NCBI GenBank assembly: GCA_963708135.1
Contig: OY970192.1
Coordinates: 3,232,001 to 3,296,000, forward strand
Length of the DNA stretch: 64,000 nt
Direction of reading: 5' to 3'
Source of the DNA: an uncultured Gemmatimonadales bacterium
GTDB taxonomy: Bacteria > Gemmatimonadota > Gemmatimonadetes > Longimicrobiales > RSA9
Program-made: the position numbers and the translations under genes
Part shown: piece by piece, positions 1-51,400 of the stretch
Position numbering within the stretch: position 1 is the stretch's first letter
Layout of the letters: each line of letters begins with the position of its first letter
The notes under the pieces: generated by a model
The model's input: the letters and a program-made list of their open reading frames with translations, nothing else
The model's database searches: none
What the model was told of the DNA's origin: nothing

Positions 1-2530
1 ACCGCACGTGCACCGGCCTTTCTCCGACCGGGCGCACGCCTCCCCCTTTTCCCACCAGAGTGGGAGAGTGGGAGAGTGGGAGACCGGGGCGACGTTCGCG
101 GCGGCCGACCGCGGCCGGGCCTCGCACCGTGCCGGGTACCGCACGTGCAGGGCCCTTCCTCCGGACCGGGCGACACCTCCGACTCCGAACGGCCTTCGCA
201 GGCAACGAGGCCTGCGGAAACGCCGGCATCCTGGCCTGCCCGGCGCTGCACCCACTCTCCCACTCGCCCACTCCCTCCCCCAGAGTGGGAGAGTGGGAGA
301 GTGGGAGACCGGGGCGACGTTCGCGGCGGCCGACCGCGGCCGGGCCTCGCACCGTGCCGGGTACCGCACGTGCAGGGCCCTTCCTCCGGACCGGGCGACA
401 CCTCCGACTCCGAGCTGCCTTCGCGGGCAACGAGGGCCGCGGAAACGCCGGCATCCCGGCCTGCCCGGCGCTGCACCCACTCTCCCACTCGCCCACTCCC
501 TTCCCCAGAGTGGGAGAGTGGGAGAGTGGGAGACCGGGGCGACGTTCGCGGCGGCCGACCGCGACCGGGCCTCGCACCGTGCCGGGTACCGCACGTGCAG
601 GGCCCTTCCTCCGGACCGGGCGACACCTCCGACTCCGAACGGCCTCCGCAGACAACGAGGGCCGCGGAAACGCCGGCATCCCGCCCTGCCCGGCGCTGCA
701 CCCACTCTCCCACTCGCCCACTCCCTTCCCCAGAGTGGGAGAGTGGGGGAGTGGGAGACCGGGGCGACGTTCGCGGCGGCCGACCGCGACCGGGCCTCGC
801 ACCGTGCCGGGTACCGCACGTGCAGGGCCCTTCCTCCGGACCGGGCGACACCTCCGACTCCGAGCTGCCTTCGCGGGCAACGAGGGCCGCGGAAACGCCG
901 GCATCCTGCCCTGCCCGGCGCTGCACCCACTCTCGCACTCGCCCACTCCCTCCCCCAGAGTGGGAGAGTGGGGGAGTGGGAGACCGGGGCGACGTTCGCG
1001 GCGGCCGACCGCGACCGGGCCTCGCACCGTGCCGGGTACCGCACGTGCAGGGCCCTTCCTCCGGACCGGGCGACACCTCCGACTCCGAGCTGCCTTCGCG
1101 GGCAACGAGGGCCGCGGAAACGCCGGCATCCTGCCCTGCCCGGCGCTGCACCCACTCTCCCACTCGCCCACTCCCTCCCCCAGAGTGGGAGAGTGGGAGA
1201 GTGGGAGACCGGGGCGACGTTCGCGGCGGCCGACCGCGACCGGGCCTCGCACCGTGCCGGGTACCGCACGTGCAGGGCCCTTCCTCCGGACCGGGCGACA
1301 CCTCCGACTCCGAACGGCCTCCGCAGACAACGAGGGCCGCGGAAACGCCGGCATCCTGCCCTGCCCGGCGCTGCACCCACTCTCGCACTCGCCCACTCCC
1401 TCCCCCAGAGTGGGAGAGTGGGGGAGTGGGAGACCGGGGCGACGTTCGCGGCGGCCGACCGCGACCGGGCCTCGCACCGTGCCGGGTACCGCACGTGCAC
1501 CGGCGTTTCTCCGACCGGGCGCGCGCCTCCGGTTCCGAGCTGCCTTCGCGGGCAACGAGGGCCGCGGAAACGCCGGCATCCTGCCCTGCCCGGCGCTGCA
1601 CCCACTCTCGCACTCGCCCACTCCCTCCCCCAGAGTGGGAGAGTGGGGGAGTGGGAGACCGGGGCGACGTTCGCGGCGGCCGACCGCGACCGGGCCTCGC
1701 ACCGTGCCGGGTACCGCACGTGCAGGGCCCTTCCTCCGGACCGGGCGACACCTCCGACTCCGAGCTGCCTTCGCGGGCAACGAGGGCCGCGGAAACGCCG
1801 GCATCCTGCCCTGCCCGGCGCTGCACCCACTCTCCCACTCGCCCACTCCCTTCCCCAGAGTGGGAGAGTGGGGGAGTGGGAGACCGGGGCGACGTTCGCG
1901 GCGGCCGACCGCGACCGGGCCTCGCACCGTGCCGGGTACCGCACGTGCAGGGCCCTTCCTCCGGACCGGGCGACACCTCCGACTCCGAACGGCCTCCGCA
2001 GACAACGAGGGCCGCGGAAACGCCGGCATCCTGCCCTGCCCGGCGCTGCACCCACTCTCCCACTCGCCCACTCCCTCCCCCAGAGTGGGAGAGTGGGGGA
2101 GTGGGAGACCGGGGCGACGTTCGCGGCGGCTGACCGCGACCGGGCCTCGCACCGTGCCGGGTACCGCACGTGCAGGGCCCTTCCTCCGGACCGGGCGACA
2201 CCTCCGACTCCGAACGGCCTCCGCAGACAACGAGGGCCGCGGAAACGCCGGCATCCTGCCCTGCCCGGCGCAGCACCCACTCTCCCACTCGCCCACTCCC
2301 TCCCCCAGAGTGGGAGAGTGGGGGAGTGGGAGACCGGGGCGACGTTCGCGGCGGCCGACCGCGACCGGGCCTCGCACCGTGCCGGGTACCGCACGTGCAG
2401 GGCCCTTCCTCCGGACCGGGCGACACCTCCGACTCCGAACGGCCTCCGCAGACAACGAGGGCCGCGGAAACGCCGGCATCCCGCCCTGCCCGGCGCTGCA
2501 CCCACTCTCCCACTCGCCCACTCTCCCACT
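1..2530. repeat. Tandem array of 225-bp units (11 full copies plus a partial one at the window edge), each bounded by (GAGTGGGA)3 ... (CCCACTCT)3 inverted arms
   Basis: GAGTGGGA block starts at 58, 283, 508 ... 2308, an exact 225-bp period; copies are near-identical with a few recurrent variants. Confidence 0.97.
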
Positions 2531-2980
2531 CTGGCGGGGGGGAGTGGGAGGGCGGGAGGGGCGCCCGCCTCCGACTCCGAACTGCCTTCGCAGGCAACGA
2601 GGCCCGCGGAAACGCCGGCATCCCGCCCTGCCCGGCGCTGCACCCACTCTCCCACTCGCCCACTCTCCCACTCTGGCGGGGGGAGTGGGAGGGCGGGAGG
2701 GGCGCCCGCCTCCGGTTCCGAGCTGCCTTCGCGGGCAACGAGGCCCGCGGAAACGCCGGCATCCCGCCCTGCCCGGCGCTGCACCCACTCTCCCACTCGC
2801 CCACTCTCCCACTCTGGCGGGGGGAGTGGGAGGGCGGGAGGGGCGCCCGCCTCCGACTCCGAACTGCCTTCGCGGGCAACGAGGGCCGCGGAAACGCCGG
2901 CATCCTGCCCTGCCCGGCGCAGCACCCACTCTCCCACTCGCCCACTCTCCCACTCTGGCGGGGGGAGTGGGAGGGCGGGA
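2531..2980. repeat. Three ~141-bp shortened derivatives of the 225-bp unit plus a partial fourth
   Basis: CTGGCGGG starts at 2531, 2673, 2814, 2955; shares the CCGCGGAAACGCCGGCATCC...CCCACTCTCCCACTC segment with the long unit. Confidence 0.93.
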
Positions 2981-3003
2981 TCGCGAAGATTCAGGCCGCG
3001 CGT

Positions 3004-3399
3004 TCACCGGATCTTCCATTGGCCTGGGCGGGCGGACATCACGGCGAGGCCGGCGATGATGCCGTCGTAGCGGGCGTCGTGGGCCTTCGCGGCTTCGGCA
3101 TCCATCCAGCCGGAGAGCTCCGCGAATTCGATCCAGACCCGCGTCTCCCCGGCCTCGCCCGCCGCTTCGGTCAGCTTGGCGACGAAGGCGGCGGGGTAGC
3201 GTCGCTTCTGCCAGGCCTCGGCAATGTTGGCGCAGACGGAGCGGGACGAGCGACGCATCTGGGATGTCAGCGCGTAACGCTCATCCCGCGGGAAGTGCTG
3301 GCTGGCCTCGAAGAGAGCCATGGCCGCATCGCGCGACTCACGGTAGACGCGGAGCTGCCGGTGGTCGAGGATCCGGCCCTGCCATCTGTCCTGAGGCAT
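3004..3399 (-). CDS. Four helix bundle protein (TIGR02436 / 23S rRNA-IVP family, Avd-like)
   Basis: 131 aa; L.VY...FP.DERYALTSQMRRSSRSVCANIAEAW.KRRY...F...GEAGET..W signature; GGAG upstream of ATG. Confidence 0.92.
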   Translation of the reverse strand: MPQDRWQGRILDHRQLRVYRESRDAAMALFEASQHFPRDERYALTSQMRRSSRSVCANIAEAWQKRRYPAAFVAKLTEAAGEAGETRVWIEFAELSGWMDAEAAKAHDARYDGIIAGLAVMSARPGQWKIR

Positions 3400-3436
3400 T
3401 GGCGTTCACTCCGGGCGTTGTCGTGCGCGGACGCAG

Positions 3437-3795
3437 AGAGTGGGAGAGTGGGAGACCGGGCGACGTTCGCCGGGGCCGAACGTGCCCGGGCCTCGCAGCG
3501 CTCGCAGCCGGGCGGCTTCGCCGGGGCGCCGAACGTTTCCGGCGGCTCCCCCTCCCTCGGACCCGCGTCGGCCCGATTCAACCCGCCTGCCAGCGCTCCC
3601 GGCGACCACAAGCCTGCACCGCGCCGGCAACCCGGCGCAGCCGTGGCAGCCTGCACCGCACCGCAGCCCGGCGCAGCCGTGAGCGCCCGCACCGCGCCGG
3701 CAACCCGGCGCAGCCGAGCGGAGCCTCCGCAGCCCGCGCCCCCGCCCCGCCCGGCAGCTCTCCCACTCTCCCACTCTCCCACTCTCCCACTCTCG
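3437..3795. repeat. Diverged single copy of the array unit with GAGTGGGA left arm and (CTCTCCCA)4 right arm
   Basis: GAGTGGGAGACCGGGCGACGTTCGC...CCGGGCCTCGCA matches the start of the 225-bp unit; internal duplication of GCACCGCGCCGGCAACCCGGCGCAGCCG. Confidence 0.8.
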
Positions 3796-3922
3796 CCGGC
3801 GCGGACGAACAAGCGGCCCGACCCACCCCCCACCAGCAAACCCCGGCCCACCCGGGGCACGGCCACCCGCCTGGCCGGAGCTCCTGCCGGCCGTCATCCC
3901 GCCGGAAAGACCCGGCCGGCCG

Positions 3923-4927
3923 TCATCCTCCTGCAAAGATCAGCGCGCCCAGCACCTTCCCGACGACCTCCAGCCCGACGGGCGAGGTATGCGCGACGGT
4001 GTCCTCGAGCGTGTGCCAGTATGCGTTTCCGGGGCCGTAGTCGAAGTCGATGATGTCGATGGTGTGGATGCCGGCCTTGTTGAGGGGGATGTGGTCGTCA
4101 TCGATCGCCATGCCCTCGGTGCGGGGGAAGTACTGGCCGAAGCCGAGCTGCTCGGCGGTGCGCCAGACGCGGTCGACGACCTCGGGGGCCTGCTGCTCCG
4201 AGGTGGGCTCGATCGGATAGACGGGGCTCTGGTCGCCCACCATGTCCACGAGAATGCCGTAGAGGGGCTTGTAGCCGGGCGGCATGTTGGCGGCGAAGTG
4301 TGTCGAGCCGAGGTACATGTCGCCGGTGTAGTCCTCGCCGTCCACGAAGAGTAGGTCCACGCCGATCGGCGGGGAATGGCGTTTCAGGACATCGGCAAGC
4401 TCCATCAGGACGGCGACGCCGCTGCCGCCGTCGTTGGCGCCCTGGATCGGCTTGATCTTCGCGCTGTCGGTCTCGTTGTCGGCGGTGGGGCGGGTGTCCC
4501 AGTGGGCGAGCAGCAGGACGCGGTCGTGGGCGGAAGGGTTGAAGCGGGCGAAGACGTTGGAGAGGTGGAGCGTCTTGCCGGCGGCCTGCGCGTCGAAGCT
4601 GTGCACCTGCACGGTGTCGGCGCGCGTCTTCAGGTAGTCGACCATCCACTGGAGCTGCTTTTCGTGGCCGGGGGTGCCCGGCACGCGCGGGCCGAAGGCG
4701 ACCTGCTGCCGGATCAGGTCCTCGGCGGCCGCGCCGCTGAAGTCGGGCGCCACGAGCGGCTTCCCCGCCGCCGTCTCCGCGCCCTGGGCGTTGCCCGACC
4801 CGCCGGACCCGGCGGACCCGCCGGAGCGCTCGCACGCGGGCAGCGCCATCCCGACCAACAGCAGCATGCAGGCGACGAGCCCGCCGCGGATCCAGCGCGG
4901 CAGTCGGCGTTCGCGGACGGCTCCCAC
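3923..4927 (-). CDS. M28 family peptidase / glutaminyl-cyclase-like lipoprotein (start uncertain: GTG 4927 or ATG 4867)
   Basis: QVAFGPRVPG, LAHWDTRP, GANDGGSG, DGED, DMVGD, DDH, YWHT motifs; lipobox LPAC. Confidence 0.88.
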   Translation of the reverse strand: MGAVRERRLPRWIRGGLVACMLLLVGMALPACERSGGSAGSGGSGNAQGAETAAGKPLVAPDFSGAAAEDLIRQQVAFGPRVPGTPGHEKQLQWMVDYLKTRADTVQVHSFDAQAAGKTLHLSNVFARFNPSAHDRVLLLAHWDTRPTADNETDSAKIKPIQGANDGGSGVAVLMELADVLKRHSPPIGVDLLFVDGEDYTGDMYLGSTHFAANMPPGYKPLYGILVDMVGDQSPVYPIEPTSEQQAPEVVDRVWRTAEQLGFGQYFPRTEGMAIDDDHIPLNKAGIHTIDIIDFDYGPGNAYWHTLEDTVAHTSPVGLEVVGKVLGALIFAGG

Positions 4928-14768: not shown

Positions 14769-14878
14769 GGGGCACGGGCACACGTTTACGTTCACGTGGA
14801 CGGGCATCAACGGAAGGCAGAAACGGAAGGCAGGGGCAGGTTCAGGGGCAGGTTCAGGGGCAGGGGCAGGGGCAGGTT
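14769..14878. repeat. Hexamer repeats: (CAGGGG/CAGGTT)8 at 14831-14878 and a CACG/TACG-type tract
   Basis: Read directly; abuts the stop codon of the DapF-like gene. Confidence 0.85.
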
Positions 14879-15757
14879 CTACTCCGCGGCGAGCCGGCTC
14901 GTGAGCTCCTCCGTCAGCTCCCCCTCGAGGATGATCTCGACATCGCCGCGCAGGCGCACGGAGTAGTCGTCGGCCACCCTCACTCTCACGCTCCCGCCCT
15001 CCATCTCGACCGTGAGCTCGTCGCCGCGGGAGACGAGGCCGAGGCGGGTGGCGATGGCGGCTACGGCGCAGGCGCTCGAGCCGGAGGCCAGGGTCTCGCC
15101 GGCGCCGCGCTCCCAGATCCAGGCCTGGAGGCGGTCGGGGCCGAGGACGCGGGCGAGCTGGACGTTGGTGCCGGCGGGGAAGGCGGCGTGGGTGGCGAGC
15201 TGCGGGCCGCGGCGCAGGAAATCGGCGCGGTCGAGCGGGCCGTCGAGCAGCACGACGCAGTGGGGGTTGGCCAGCGAGACGGGATTGACCTCGAGGACCT
15301 CGCCGTCGGGCAGCTCGAGCGGTGTACGCAGCGCCTCGCCCGGCACGGGCGTGAAGCCTACGGCCTCGCCGCGGAAGTCGGCGCGGCCCATCTCGACGGT
15401 GATGTCGAGGATGCCGGTCGCCGGCGCGGCCTGGATGGTCATGGTGACCTCGTCGCGCGGGAGGCGGACGGTGAAGGCGTCGCCTGCCACGAGGCCGCGG
15501 CGGTGCAGGAAAGCGCCGAAGATGCGCAGCCCGTTGCCGCTCTTCTCGGCCGTGGTGCCGTCGGGATTGAAGATCTCGAGGCGGAACGGCGGCCCGTCCA
15601 GGTGGCCGAGCAGGATGCCGTCGGAGCCGATGCCGCGGTGGCGGTCGCAGAGGCGACGCACGCGCGCGGGCGTGAGCGGCCAGGGCAGCGCGGCCGCGTC
15701 GAGGACGATGTAGTCGTTGCCCAGGCCGTGGCCGCGGGCGAAGGCGAGGCGGCTCAC
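14879..15757 (-). CDS. dapF: Diaminopimelate epimerase-fold protein (both catalytic Cys positions are Ser)
   Basis: GHGLGNDY, RHRGIGSDG, IFNPDG..AEKSGNG, NPHCV, TNVQ, WERGAGETLASGSS; GTG start inferred. Confidence 0.75.
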   Translation of the reverse strand: MSRLAFARGHGLGNDYIVLDAAALPWPLTPARVRRLCDRHRGIGSDGILLGHLDGPPFRLEIFNPDGTTAEKSGNGLRIFGAFLHRRGLVAGDAFTVRLPRDEVTMTIQAAPATGILDITVEMGRADFRGEAVGFTPVPGEALRTPLELPDGEVLEVNPVSLANPHCVVLLDGPLDRADFLRRGPQLATHAAFPAGTNVQLARVLGPDRLQAWIWERGAGETLASGSSACAVAAIATRLGLVSRGDELTVEMEGGSVRVRVADDYSVRLRGDVEIILEGELTEELTSRLAAE

Positions 15758-21570: not shown

Positions 21571-22090
21571 GCGGAGGCGGGCGGGCGCCCCCTCGGGGCC
21601 AGCACCGTCCTCGCGGCTCCGCCGCTGCGGTCGGCGAATGTCCCCTCCGGGGCGCCCGCCCGCCTCCGCTCCAGCCACCACGCGCGTCGGATCCCTCGCC
21701 AGGCCGGCGCCGCGGCGCGTGTTGAGGGGGACGGTACTGGCAAGCAGGTGGATCTTGCCTCGGGGGTCCCGGCCGGACTCGGCGGGGGCGCGTGTGGGGC
21801 ACCGACGCGAGAGGGCGCGGCCAAGGGCGGGTCGCTCGTCGGCGGCGGTGGGAGGCGCCGGACACACCGGCGTATGGGCGCCGCGGAAATCCACCGGCGC
21901 GTACGGAGGCCGGGATCGGCTCCCACTCCCCCACTCTCCCACTTGCCCACTCTCGCGCTTCGGCGCGCGCCGCGGCCGCCGCCACGCGCCGCGGGCGATG
22001 CTTCGCCCGGTGAGGCCGGCGGAAATCCGCGCGCGCTTGCGGTCGCCGGAAGCGGCTCCCACTCCCCCACTCTCCCACTCCCCCACTCTC
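21571..22090. repeat. Composite intergenic element: 21-bp inverted repeat plus two GCGGAAATCC...(CCCACTCY)n modules
   Basis: IR 21571-21591/21649-21669; 8-mer tracts 21921-21954 and 22057-22090; blocks homologous to 27278-27965. Confidence 0.8.
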
Positions 22091-27621: not shown

Positions 27622-27965
27622 GCGCCGAACCCGGATGCCCGGGCGCACCCACGTGCGCCGCGGAAATCCGCCGGCGAATGCGGGCGCCCGGATCGGCTCC
27701 CACTCCCCCACTCCCCCACTCCCCCACTCTCGCCCGCGCCGGACCCGGATGCCCGGGCGCACCCACGTGCGCCGCGGAAATCCGCCGGCGAATGCGGGCG
27801 CCGGGATCGGCTCCCACTCCCCCACTCCCCCACTCCCCCACTCTCGCCCGCGCCGGACCCGGATGCCCGGGCGCACCCACGAGCGCCGCGGAGATCCGCC
27901 GGCGAATGCGGGCGCCCGGATCGGCTCCCACTCCCCCACTCCCCCACTCCCCCACTCTCGCCCGC
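27622..27965. repeat. Three tandem 114-bp repeats ending in (CCCACTCC)n
   Basis: CCCGGATGCCCGGGCGCACCCAC at 27630, 27744, 27858. Confidence 0.95.
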
Positions 27966-28012
27966 GGCTCCCGTCGCCGCGGCGCAAGGACAAGAGTGGG
28001 CCATTGTCGGGT

Positions 28013-45850: not shown

Positions 45851-45935
45851 GTTCACGCTTTCGCATTCGCATTCGCATTCGCATTCGCATTCGCTTTCGG
45901 CGGTTCGGCGGTTCGGCGGTTCGGCGGTTCGGCGG
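45851..45935. repeat. (TTCGCA/TTCGCT)n hexamer tract followed by (CGGTTCGG)4
   Basis: Read directly; left arm of the second four-helix gene. Confidence 0.92.
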
Positions 45936-45981
45936 CCCCACCCCAGCACGGACGCCGCGCCCGGATTCTGGCACACGCCGC

Positions 45982-46347
45982 TCATTCGCCTCTCCCTTTC
46001 CCTTTCCCCAGCAGTCCCGTGAGCATCGCCACGATCCGGTCCAGCAGCTCGCGCCCGGACCCGAGCTCGGTCTCGTCCGCGAGATGCAGCACTTCGAGGA
46101 CGTCGAGCACCGCCGCGCATTCCGTGGCCGAGCGACGCGCGAAGCGGAAGAACCGCGCCTTGTCCGCCTTGCTGAACTCGCCCGCGCCCTCGGCGATGTT
46201 CAGGGCCATGGACGTCGCGGCGCGCCGGAGCTGGTCGACCAGGTAGCCGTGCCCGGCCGGCAGCCGCTGCACGAGGGCGTTCGCCACGGCCACGAACTCG
46301 ATCGCGGCGCGGTAGACATCCATCTTCTCGTGAAAGAACGTGGGCAT
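45982..46347 (-). CDS. Four helix bundle protein (TIGR02436 / 23S rRNA-IVP family)
   Basis: HEKMDVY, DQLRRAATSMALNIAEG.G, RFF..ARRSA.EC; GGGAG RBS; GKGKG tail encoded by a hexamer repeat. Confidence 0.92.
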   Translation of the reverse strand: MPTFFHEKMDVYRAAIEFVAVANALVQRLPAGHGYLVDQLRRAATSMALNIAEGAGEFSKADKARFFRFARRSATECAAVLDVLEVLHLADETELGSGRELLDRIVAMLTGLLGKGKGRGE

Positions 46348-46462
46348 GGTTGACTCCCGTGTCGAACATGGCAGCGTGCACCCTACCGCCTCCCGGGGGC
46401 GAGGGGGGCCTCGCCCCGCCTCACCTTCGCCCGCGGAGGGCACCCTCCCCCCGCCCCCGTTT

Positions 46463-46490
46463 CGAAAGCGAAAGCGAAAGCGAAAGCGTG
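46463..46490. repeat. (CGAAAG)4CGTG tract, inverted partner of 45854-45898
   Basis: Reverse complement CACGCTTTCGCTTTCG matches the left arm CACGCTTTCGCATTCG. Confidence 0.9.
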
Positions 46491-50979: not shown

Positions 50980-51400
50980 TCAAGAGCCTCTGACGCCTCG
51001 GAGTCCTCCGGCACACCCGAGCCCTCTGACGCCTCGGAGTCCTCCGGCACGCCCGAGCCCTCTGACGCCTCGGAGTCCTCCGGCACGCCCGAGCCCTCTG
51101 GCTCCGCCGAGCCCTCGGACTTCCCCGCGCCCTCCGACGCCCGAGCCCTCCGACGCCCGAGCCCTCCGACGCCCGAGCCCTCCGACGCCCGAGTCCTCTG
51201 ACGCCTCGGAGCCTTCGACGCCCCCCGAGCCCCGGTCCCCAACCCCGAGCCCGCTACCGAGCCCGCGCCCCGCGTCCCCGAGCCCGCGCCCCCGAGCCCG
51301 CGCCCCGGGCGCGAGCCAGATCCCGATCCCGATCCCGATCCCGATCCCGATCCCGATCCCGATCCCGAGCCCCGATCCCGAGCCCCGAGCCCCGCGGCCC
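50980..51400. repeat. Nested tandem repeats: 36 bp x3, 16 bp x4, (GATCCC)8 and CCCGAG-type tracts
   Basis: CTCTGACGCC at 50988/51024/51060; CCTCCGACGCCCGAG at 51131/51147/51163/51179; GATCCC 51319-51366. Confidence 0.92.

Follow-up and report, generated by a model that had tools for sequence, protein, structure and literature searches.

Organisation of the locus

The 64,000-nt stretch analysed here (the window) belongs to contig OY970192.1 of an uncultured Gemmatimonadota bacterium, whose genome (the source genome, G000) is a single 5.45-Mb contig that is 97.65% complete. At the left end of the window lie a tandem array of 225-bp units and, between short-unit repeats arranged as inverted arms, a four-helix-bundle gene of the TIGR02436 family (Table 1); this gene, its arms and the gene-less elements bounded by similar arms are the subject of this report.

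Table 1. Repeats, elements and genes of the window discussed in the text (TRF, Tandem Repeats Finder).
Feature	Position	Strand	Basis and remarks
Partial repeat-unit tail	1-56		Unit begins ~60 bases ahead of the window, a little upstream of where a comEA-like gene starts
Tandem array of 11 gene-less elements	50-2523		TRF
141-bp array, 3.9 copies	2426-2980		TRF; right half of the 225-bp unit, C4 arm and degenerate G arm
(CCCACTCN)4 arm	2925-2956	+	TRF, sequence; closes the last 141-bp unit
Degenerate third arm; cognate downstream arm	2957-2980	-	Sequence, homologue polarity; directly after the stop codon of the four-helix gene
Four-helix-bundle gene, 131 aa, subfamily A1	3004-3399	-	TIGR02436, PF05635, loop motif W-[RQ]-K-R-R-Y
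GGAG, plausible ribosome binding site	3409-3412	-	Sequence; 9 nt ahead of the ATG
Gene-less element	3436-3794		G arm 3436-3456, 309-nt core, C4.6 arm 3758-3794
Host M28 peptidase gene	3923-4870	-	Start not fixed; in relatives directly followed by comEA
Further CCCACTC arms, same family	21920-22090		TRF
114-bp array, 3 copies	27622-27966		TRF; with a (CCCACTCC)4 arm at the end of every unit
Second four-helix-bundle cassette, clade A2	45856-46488	-	Gene 45982-46347; inverted hexamer arms 46463-46488 and 45856-45899

The array comprises 11.0 copies at 96% matches, each unit reading (GAGTGGGR)3, a 170-nt core, (CCCACTCN)3 and a 9-nt spacer; any two of the 11 units differ at 1-26 of 225 bases and no two are identical. 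A single unit folds with its own arms as a long closing stem (z = -4.9), and the junction arms at 251-273 and 283-305 form 22 of 23 Watson-Crick pairs around a 9-nt loop (z = -7.0, folded as DNA), in agreement with an earlier reading of the window from its letters alone (the original prediction), which had described 225-bp units joined by 23-bp stems with 9-nt loops. Short-read unitigs (run X1, possibly the source sample) reach a depth of 7-18.5 on the repeat as against 3-4.6 on unique DNA, which fits several array copies and does not fix their number; given this raised depth and the 11 distinct units, an assembly artefact is unlikely. Two other interpretations of the array are not supported: the long open reading frames across it, which might have been taken for a repeat-encoded protein, are GC-rich frames open on both strands and without support, and its cores are near-identical copies, not the unique spacers between identical repeats of a CRISPR array.

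Whilst the long array had been regarded as integral to the gene and its arms, at least three similar arrays in the source genome (539824-541444, 3128500-3130014 and 4709242-4710794) are free of the gene, and arms in the order C then G neighbour each other almost exclusively at tandem-array junctions. The 225-bp array is therefore a local tandem amplification of one family member, incidental to the system, and may have arisen later between direct copies of the arms.

The two arms that had been assigned to the gene, a C arm at 2925-2956 and a G arm at 3436-3456, are both present in the sequence, but their pairing across the gene is not upheld by its homologues: in 64 of 67 relatives of subfamily A1 (defined below) the upstream arm is G-rich on the coding strand, i.e. 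the order is G arm, gene, C arm. By this polarity the cognate arms here are 3794-3758, the upstream arm of the gene cassette, G-rich when read on the coding strand, and 2980-2957 downstream, and the gene occupies the place of an element core rather than, as had been supposed, the equivalent of the 9-nt junction loop. The core of the element at 3436-3794 contains a 37-bp repeat at 3611-3716. The insertion site is defined by relatives in which the M28 peptidase gene stands directly before comEA. No sigma-70-like promoter or terminator was found in 2900-4000, and transcription of the four-helix gene thus probably continues from the operon upstream of it. No rRNA match was found in 1-4000, and among known RNA families only eukaryotic microRNA hairpin models matched, far under their gathering scores; a joint skipping the four-helix gene was found in none of three DNA contig sets, a search that is uninformative.

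The four-helix-bundle protein

The earlier assignment of the gene to TIGR02436 is confirmed at 82.6 bits (cut-off 24), together with 88.7 bits for PF05635 (cut-off 33.8). The structure model of the protein has four helices (predicted local distance difference test, pLDDT, 90), and its best fold matches are 2GSC (template modelling score, TM, 0.81/0.90; root-mean-square deviation 1.3), 2RLD and then Avd (4DWL). A pentameric structure has been known for the TIGR02436/PF05635 family since 2006. Both 2GSC and 2RLD contain five chains and, by analogy with these entries and with PMC4990558, the protein is probably a homopentamer. Six polar residues (Q47, R50, S54, N58, E61 and E85) are kept in all three large clades of the family, and the median ratio of nonsynonymous to synonymous substitution (dN/dS) is 0.054 over the 70 of 145 close pairs, not independent of one another, whose dS is finite and less than 3; purifying selection on the protein is strong.

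Family genes occur in 98 of the 151 genomes sampled in this phylum, and the A1 gene is patchily distributed, being present in 8 of 61 genomes (the source genome and 60 relatives). Viral contigs yielded no relatives of A1 and one locus for the A2 query. The source genome holds 10 family genes above the cut-off and one split gene; at 2369211-2370796 a hexamer-armed four-helix gene is split by a ~1.3-kb insertion resembling an insertion sequence.

Association of inverted arms with the gene family

Homologues were gathered from genomes (the best 80 of at least 543), metagenomes (the best 80 of at least 550), viral contigs (1) and relatives, giving 221 distinct genes, of which 33 with flanks under 150 nt were left out; the control consisted of the 4346 other genes of the source genome, called with a crude codon-based gene finder. 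A comparison of flanking repeats with those of other genes, as the original prediction had proposed, found inverted arms by a strict rule at 104 of 188 family genes and at 17 of the 4346 others (136/188 and 606/4346 by a loose rule), and 8 of the 10 family genes in the source genome have inverted short-repeat arms by the loose rule, each with its own unit. The association of gene and arms is thus real and beyond chance.

The period of the arms follows the clade of the protein. In A1, which is marked by a W-R-K-R-R-Y loop and spans more than 10 phyla, arms were called at 67 of 78 genes (48 octamers, one 16-mer, 9 heptamers, 7 nonamers and 2 hexamers), the exceptions including heptamer subgroups in Chloroflexota and Acidobacteriota and nonamers in cyanobacteria; A2 has calls at 33 of 66 genes, all hexamers, A4 at 34 of 41 (30 heptamers, two 14-mers and 2 octamers), and the three A3 genes have units of 14-15 nt, judged by eye. 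With 14-mers folded into 7 and 16-mers into 8, the 104 strict labels require 9 period changes on a FastTree phylogeny, whereas 200 shuffles gave a mean of 53 and never fewer than 44; since kin share labels, this tree signal alone does not establish recognition. Single hosts, however, carry several periods, each beside its own clade (8, 6 and 14 in the source genome; 8 and 7 in G004), indicating that the host polymerase does not set the period, and the window itself contains both an A1 and an A2 cassette, the latter serving as an internal control for the rule. Two small groups within the heptamer clade (L031, L035, L123) carry octamer arms, so that period 8 arose more than once.

A1 arms have a median of ~4 units, and a median of ~35 nt separates the gene from the end of the upstream G arm, which often includes GGAG. 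The 32 distinct A1 octamers align on G-G-x-G (0.88, 0.97, -, 0.97) with an information of 4.73, as against at most 3.57 in 50 shuffles, and share the conserved core GG-D-G; 14 of them have no GGG run. As an out-of-sample check, XCC0516 (the protein of 2GSC) scores 127 bits with the heptamer-clade profile, and supplement 2 of PMC4692102 places a four-unit GGGAATC-type array at its start codon; the accessible part of the main text is without that gene, and the supplement is without a downstream arm, so that the upstream array alone is confirmed.

The arms might owe nothing to recognition, having arisen once by polymerase slippage, been inherited with the gene, retained their period since slippage duplicates entire units, and spread by ectopic recombination. 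Slippage has been proposed for bacterial heptamer repeats (work cited in the accessible part of PMC4692102), the local arrays look like products of slippage or of unequal crossover at short homologies, and closely related proteins can differ by one base in the period of their arms. Against such an origin, arms of 3-5 units persist beside genes with saturated synonymous sites, with fixed polarity (64/67) and a GG-D-G core, one host holds several periods that each stand beside their own clade, and strong purifying selection acts on a protein for which no other role is known. We regard slippage without recognition as very unlikely, and favour recognition of the arms by the protein encoded between them.

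A PF13366 gene with short inverted 9-mer arms lies at 3137568-3137954 of the source genome (L274), and the remnant of another lies between inverted arms within the M28-comEA gap of G001 (L248). We take PF13366 to be PDDEXK_3, GxxExxY-like; this second family of small genes may follow the same gene-plus-arms layout.

A dispersed gene-less family matched to the resident gene

A search of the source genome allowing one mismatch located 255 arms of the octamer family, most of them with three units; 233 lie between genes. The arms bound 73 elements, each built of a G arm, a core and a C arm; the cores measure 94-597 nt, and 69 of the 73 belong to a single similarity group. Collapsing tandem copies leaves 49 distinct elements, and 22 of these have a full-length homologue at another locus, in either orientation. 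The inner ends of the elements belong to a small set of ~12-nt motifs that are mixed freely, with the two ends never of the same type (0/49 as against ~6 expected, an estimate from type frequencies). Cores fold no better than shuffles (median z -0.3), so that only the arms pair and a long core hairpin is rejected; weak periodicity peaks near 9, 18, 36 and 54 appear in the cores against a simple shuffle. The gene-less elements insert into intergenic DNA and tolerant protein loops.

The repeat dispersed in a genome matches the unit beside its resident gene. (CCCACTCN)3 occurs 185 times in the source genome and once in 60 relatives. Trimers of the A1-adjacent units of four further genomes, each compared with four other genomes, number 197 in G006 (at most 1 elsewhere), 44 in G004 (0-7 elsewhere), 197 in G048 (at most 3 elsewhere) and 176 in G031 (0 elsewhere), and all four units score 0 in the source genome. 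Amongst 56 loci from other phyla, 9 have cognate arrays apart from the gene, 15 in all, as against 1.2 expected for non-cognate units. A generic octamer pattern, itself partly derived from these same genomes, is matched a median of 44 times where an A1 gene is present (8 genomes) and once where it is absent (53), and reaches at least 30 matches in 5/8 and 2/53, respectively; these are raw counts, as the reversed-pattern control is raised in G000 and G006, whose units match it in part when read in reverse. That gene and arms form one unit, as originally proposed, is accordingly borne out by the enrichment of arms, by the link between clade and period and by this matrix of cognate repeats.

It had further been suggested that the protein reads a periodic motif after the manner of TRAP. 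Reading of a periodic motif is still the best-fitting idea, but a TRAP-like regulon is not: amongst solitary arms between co-oriented genes the G strand lies on the mRNA in 11 and the C strand in 15, and 35 of 61 intergenic solitary arms lie between convergent or divergent genes. The absent strand bias speaks for DNA-level, largely neutral insertion over such a regulon. A domesticated host regulator, TRAP-like or related to G-quadruplexes, that controls or protects host transcripts through the arms would suit the strong conservation of the protein and its long residence at one site in six genera (see below), and G-rich heptamers of broadly this type can fold into G-quadruplexes in vitro (PMC4692102, in the part available); it is, however, at odds with the unbiased strands, with an A1 gene in just 8/61 genomes, with the 14/32 octamers that have no GGG run and with the three units of most arms in the source genome, and the accessible part of PMC4692102 reports no regulatory role for its own repeats. 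We consider host regulation highly improbable as the purpose of the arms, as compared with their recognition by a selfish element.

Octamer arms are nearly absent from 870000-2180000 of the source genome (2 of the 255 lie in 1.0-2.0 Mb). The cumulative GC skew has its peak near 1.05 Mb.

Mobility of both kinds of unit

Empty sites in relatives, for which the original prediction had suggested looking, do exist: amongst 30 M28-comEA loci the gap measures 0-78 nt in 10, holds the gene in 4 (G000, G004, G006, G018) and holds other armed repeats in 3. In G025 and G030 the gene likewise lies before comEA, giving long residence at this site in six genera; the pattern would fit a single ancient insertion that some lineages then lost, or several insertions into the same place. 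A loop of queA measures 19-22 aa in 5 of 8 parsed relatives, whilst in G006 it contains an in-frame element with the octamer of that genome and in the source genome seven copies of the element of that genome. Empty sites and separate queA insertions show that both kinds of unit are mobile, and the queA loop and the M28-comEA gap look like shared landing places. Hexamer- or heptamer-armed repeats occupy the M28-comEA gap in L256, L266 and L251, and queA of G007 (L281) and G037 (L285) carries other insertions of 20-25 codons in the same loop.

Enzyme searches in the source genome covered Y1, reverse transcriptase, GIY-YIG and PF13366. The absence of a reverse transcriptase, claimed originally for the window, holds genome-wide (no match to RVT_1, PF00078); Y1_Tnp (PF01797) is likewise without a match, and two GIY-YIG matches lie in long frames.

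Short non-coding units with terminal inverted repeats, dispersed copies and an in-frame insertion (queA) recall MITEs (miniature inverted-repeat transposable elements), and the gene-less units could be ordinary MITEs moved by a separate transposase or nuclease, with the four-helix gene as cargo or as a non-essential binder. Besides the terminal inverted repeats and the dispersed full-length families, this explanation can draw on the presence of other mobile elements in the source genome (the ~1.3-kb insertion that splits one family gene) and on the PF13366 gene with its short inverted 9-mer arms. The terminal repeats here are, however, tandem and variable in unit number, and the flank screen of 4346 genes revealed no partner transposase with the same ends, the only two genes with octamer inverted arms by the strict rule being host genes between two elements. 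With no Y1 transposase amongst the four enzyme families searched, with GIY-YIG matches confined to long frames, and because a passenger gene would not predict repeat period across more than 10 phyla, movement by a separate enzyme with the gene as passenger appears distinctly unlikely, and we return to a protein that recognises its own arms.

Comparison with known systems

The closest organisational parallel is with REPIN/RAYT systems (repetitive extragenic palindromic, REP, sequences with their REP-associated tyrosine transposases), in which a single gene is likewise flanked by cognate inverted repeats, a gene-less family reaches tens to hundreds of copies, abundance tracks the cognate gene and local tandem arrays occur. 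RAYT and REP follow the same cognate logic, with repeat classes that differ between lineages (PMC3686654, in the part available). The present system differs in that its protein is a 131-aa four-helix bundle and not an HUH tyrosine transposase, that its ends are microsatellite arms of tandem octamers rather than short palindromes, with a core that is not self-complementary, and that the period, not sequence alone, is clade-specific.

The intervening sequences (IVSs) of 23S rRNA genes in Coxiella and Leptospira share the PF05635 family, with an S23p reading frame in the loop of a terminal-inverted-repeat stem, and the Coxiella IVS has tandem heptamers before that frame and is excised by RNase III (PMC4990558, accessible part). 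Here, in contrast, the cassette is placed not in an rRNA gene but between M28 peptidase and comEA of a protein-coding operon, purifying selection acts on the gene family, and the arms are shared by gene-less elements throughout the genome. This precedent supports an RNA-level cassette of the same kind, in which the protein would bind its own mRNA arm, the arms would pair in the transcript so that the insert loops out or is removed by RNase III, the protein would act in autoregulation at the GGAG-rich leader or as an RNA chaperone but not in the movement of DNA, and dispersal would be passive through host recombination. The long closing stem of a folded 225-bp unit, the A1 upstream G arm ending ~35 nt before the gene, often with GGAG, and the binding of RNA by Avd all agree with such a cassette, yet it leaves unexplained why a whole dispersed family switches together with the gene-adjacent unit, the solitary arms have no mRNA-strand bias (11 as against 15) and in 35 of 61 intergenic cases lie between convergent or divergent genes, and the stem of canonical arms around the gene does not dominate the predicted fold, in which the G4.6 arm pairs with a nearer C arm. 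An exclusively RNA-level cassette is, in our judgement, unlikely, and a DNA-level repeat system with a cognate protein is preferred.

Diversity-generating retroelements (DGRs) provide the same fold in Avd (4DWL, TM 0.74-0.89; Pfam bAvd E = 6.5e-4, below its cut-off), and in the Avd pentamer all five protomers contact one RNA element, with flipped-out bases in the crevices between protomers (10.1101/2023.10.23.563531, in the part available). Unlike a DGR, the source genome has no reverse transcriptase, no template/variable repeat pair was seen, and identity to Avd is 14%.

Bacterial repeat families with units of 6-9 nt include GGGGAYT of Nostoc, the cyanobacterial short tandemly repeated repetitive (STRR) sequences and TAACTGA of Beggiatoaceae. 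Long simple sequence repeats of this size in Xanthomonas (GGGAATC) resemble the arms described here in being intergenic short-unit arrays of about four units, often in convergent inverted pairs; Xanthomonas campestris has 186 GGGAATC arrays, amongst which four units are preferred and 70 convergent pairs occur, and the accessible part of PMC4692102 reports neither a role nor a mobile partner. In the portions available, PMC4692102 and PMC4679880 name no cognate protein, whereas each family here is tied to a four-helix gene, and PMC4679880 and PMC8700078 contain no link of the four-helix family to repeats. Literature linking TIGR02436/PF05635 to dispersed repeats was not found in a search from which subscription journals were largely absent.

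By the defining property of each, the system belongs with none of REPIN/RAYT, IVS, DGR and TRAP, whilst its mechanism is something that we infer. Our results suggest that the TIGR02436 family recognises and spreads a bacterial repeat class of unexplained origin, which joins two questions, i.e. the function of a widespread orphan protein family and the origin of abundant 6-9-nt tandem repeats, so far attributed to polymerase slippage or G-quadruplexes.

Proposed mechanism

Building on the computational findings of association, clade-specific period, octamer core, genome-specific matching, mobility and purifying selection, we on balance favour a two-part selfish repeat system with a RAYT/REPIN-like organisation and a different protein. 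Its gene-bearing unit would consist of a G-rich arm, the four-helix gene and a C-rich arm, and its gene-less unit of a G arm, a mosaic core of 100-300 nt and a C arm. By analogy with Avd, we propose with modest confidence that a pentameric ring binds the G-rich single strand of an arm, one G-G-x-G motif per subunit interface, and promotes copying of arm-bounded DNA by host enzymes; the predicted target of the 131-aa protein is (GAGTGGGA)n. Ring geometry may favour period 8 and arms of 3-5 units, and binding would take place when arms become single-stranded, i.e. in hairpin extrusion, at a replication fork or in a transcript, and would lead host enzymes of repair or recombination to copy or insert the segment between the arms. 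Paired arms could let a transcript loop the insert out, by which insertion into operons would stay cheap.

A bolder version, which we hold to be doubtful, makes the pentamer itself the engine, a minimal mobiliser that measures repeat period by ring geometry and both makes and inserts the elements; it might act alone or recruit a host polymerase, as Avd recruits reverse transcriptase, and Q47, R50, S54, N58, E61 and E85 could form an active or docking site. Were this so, TIGR02436 would be a common cause of 6-9-nt repeat families in many phyla, and the IVSs of 23S rRNA would mark one of the sites at which elements of this class insert. A protein that mobilises DNA without a known catalytic domain would constitute a new kind of mobile element, whilst one that merely binds would offer a natural set of small rings reading periodic single-stranded nucleic acid; the clade-period rule and the cognate matrix predict the oligonucleotide of each protein, its spacing and the effect of swapping clades.

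Several observations weigh against a selfish system built on recognition by the pentamer. Binding, catalysis and mobilisation are deductions; searches for a catalyst found neither RVT_1 nor Y1_Tnp in the source genome; queA junctions show just short homology, close relatives offer no empty site, and no target-site duplication is definable; and, as weaker evidence, no recurrent enzyme fusion was seen amongst the 7 longer homologues, all of them singletons. As to the rule of period, co-inheritance of gene and arms accounts for part of the tree signal, the homologues are best-scoring matches amongst which relatives are not independent, and the control rests on one genome and a crude caller. Period is a mode and not a rule (9 heptamers, 7 nonamers and 2 hexamers amongst 67 A1 calls), proteins of 85% identity carry 8- and 9-mers, no single residue was found that explains the period switches, half of the A2 genes (33/66) are without an arm call, and the conserved core is significant for A1 only (A4 3.40 against a shuffle maximum of 3.38, A2 2.90 against 2.98). 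Dispersed copies are mostly 69-88% identical, with no recent burst seen, and gene and repeat do not always coincide: G060 has 82 octamer matches and no PF05635 match (1020 contigs, 92% complete), G027 has 34 and no A1 gene, G004 has the A1 gene and just 4 matches to the generic pattern, and two orphan heptamer families in the source genome, at 8 and 6 loci, have no heptamer-clade gene there. The orphan families are possibly relics of a lost gene.

Further observations

The orphan heptamers AGCCCCG and ATCCCGC are often adjacent in the source genome (214225, 445395, 2865718, 2886809, 5177431 and others). A separate family of ~190 bp with inverted GGACCAAA motifs occurs at 5074105-5074295 and in ~17 other intergenic places, one copy being nested within an octamer-armed element. 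In the window, the A2 cassette lies between two genes that, by eye, resemble parts of methionine synthase, and hexamer arrays resembling the arms of A2-type elements are found at 14809-14879 (GGCAGG) and 50987-51392 (CCCGAG, GATCCC).

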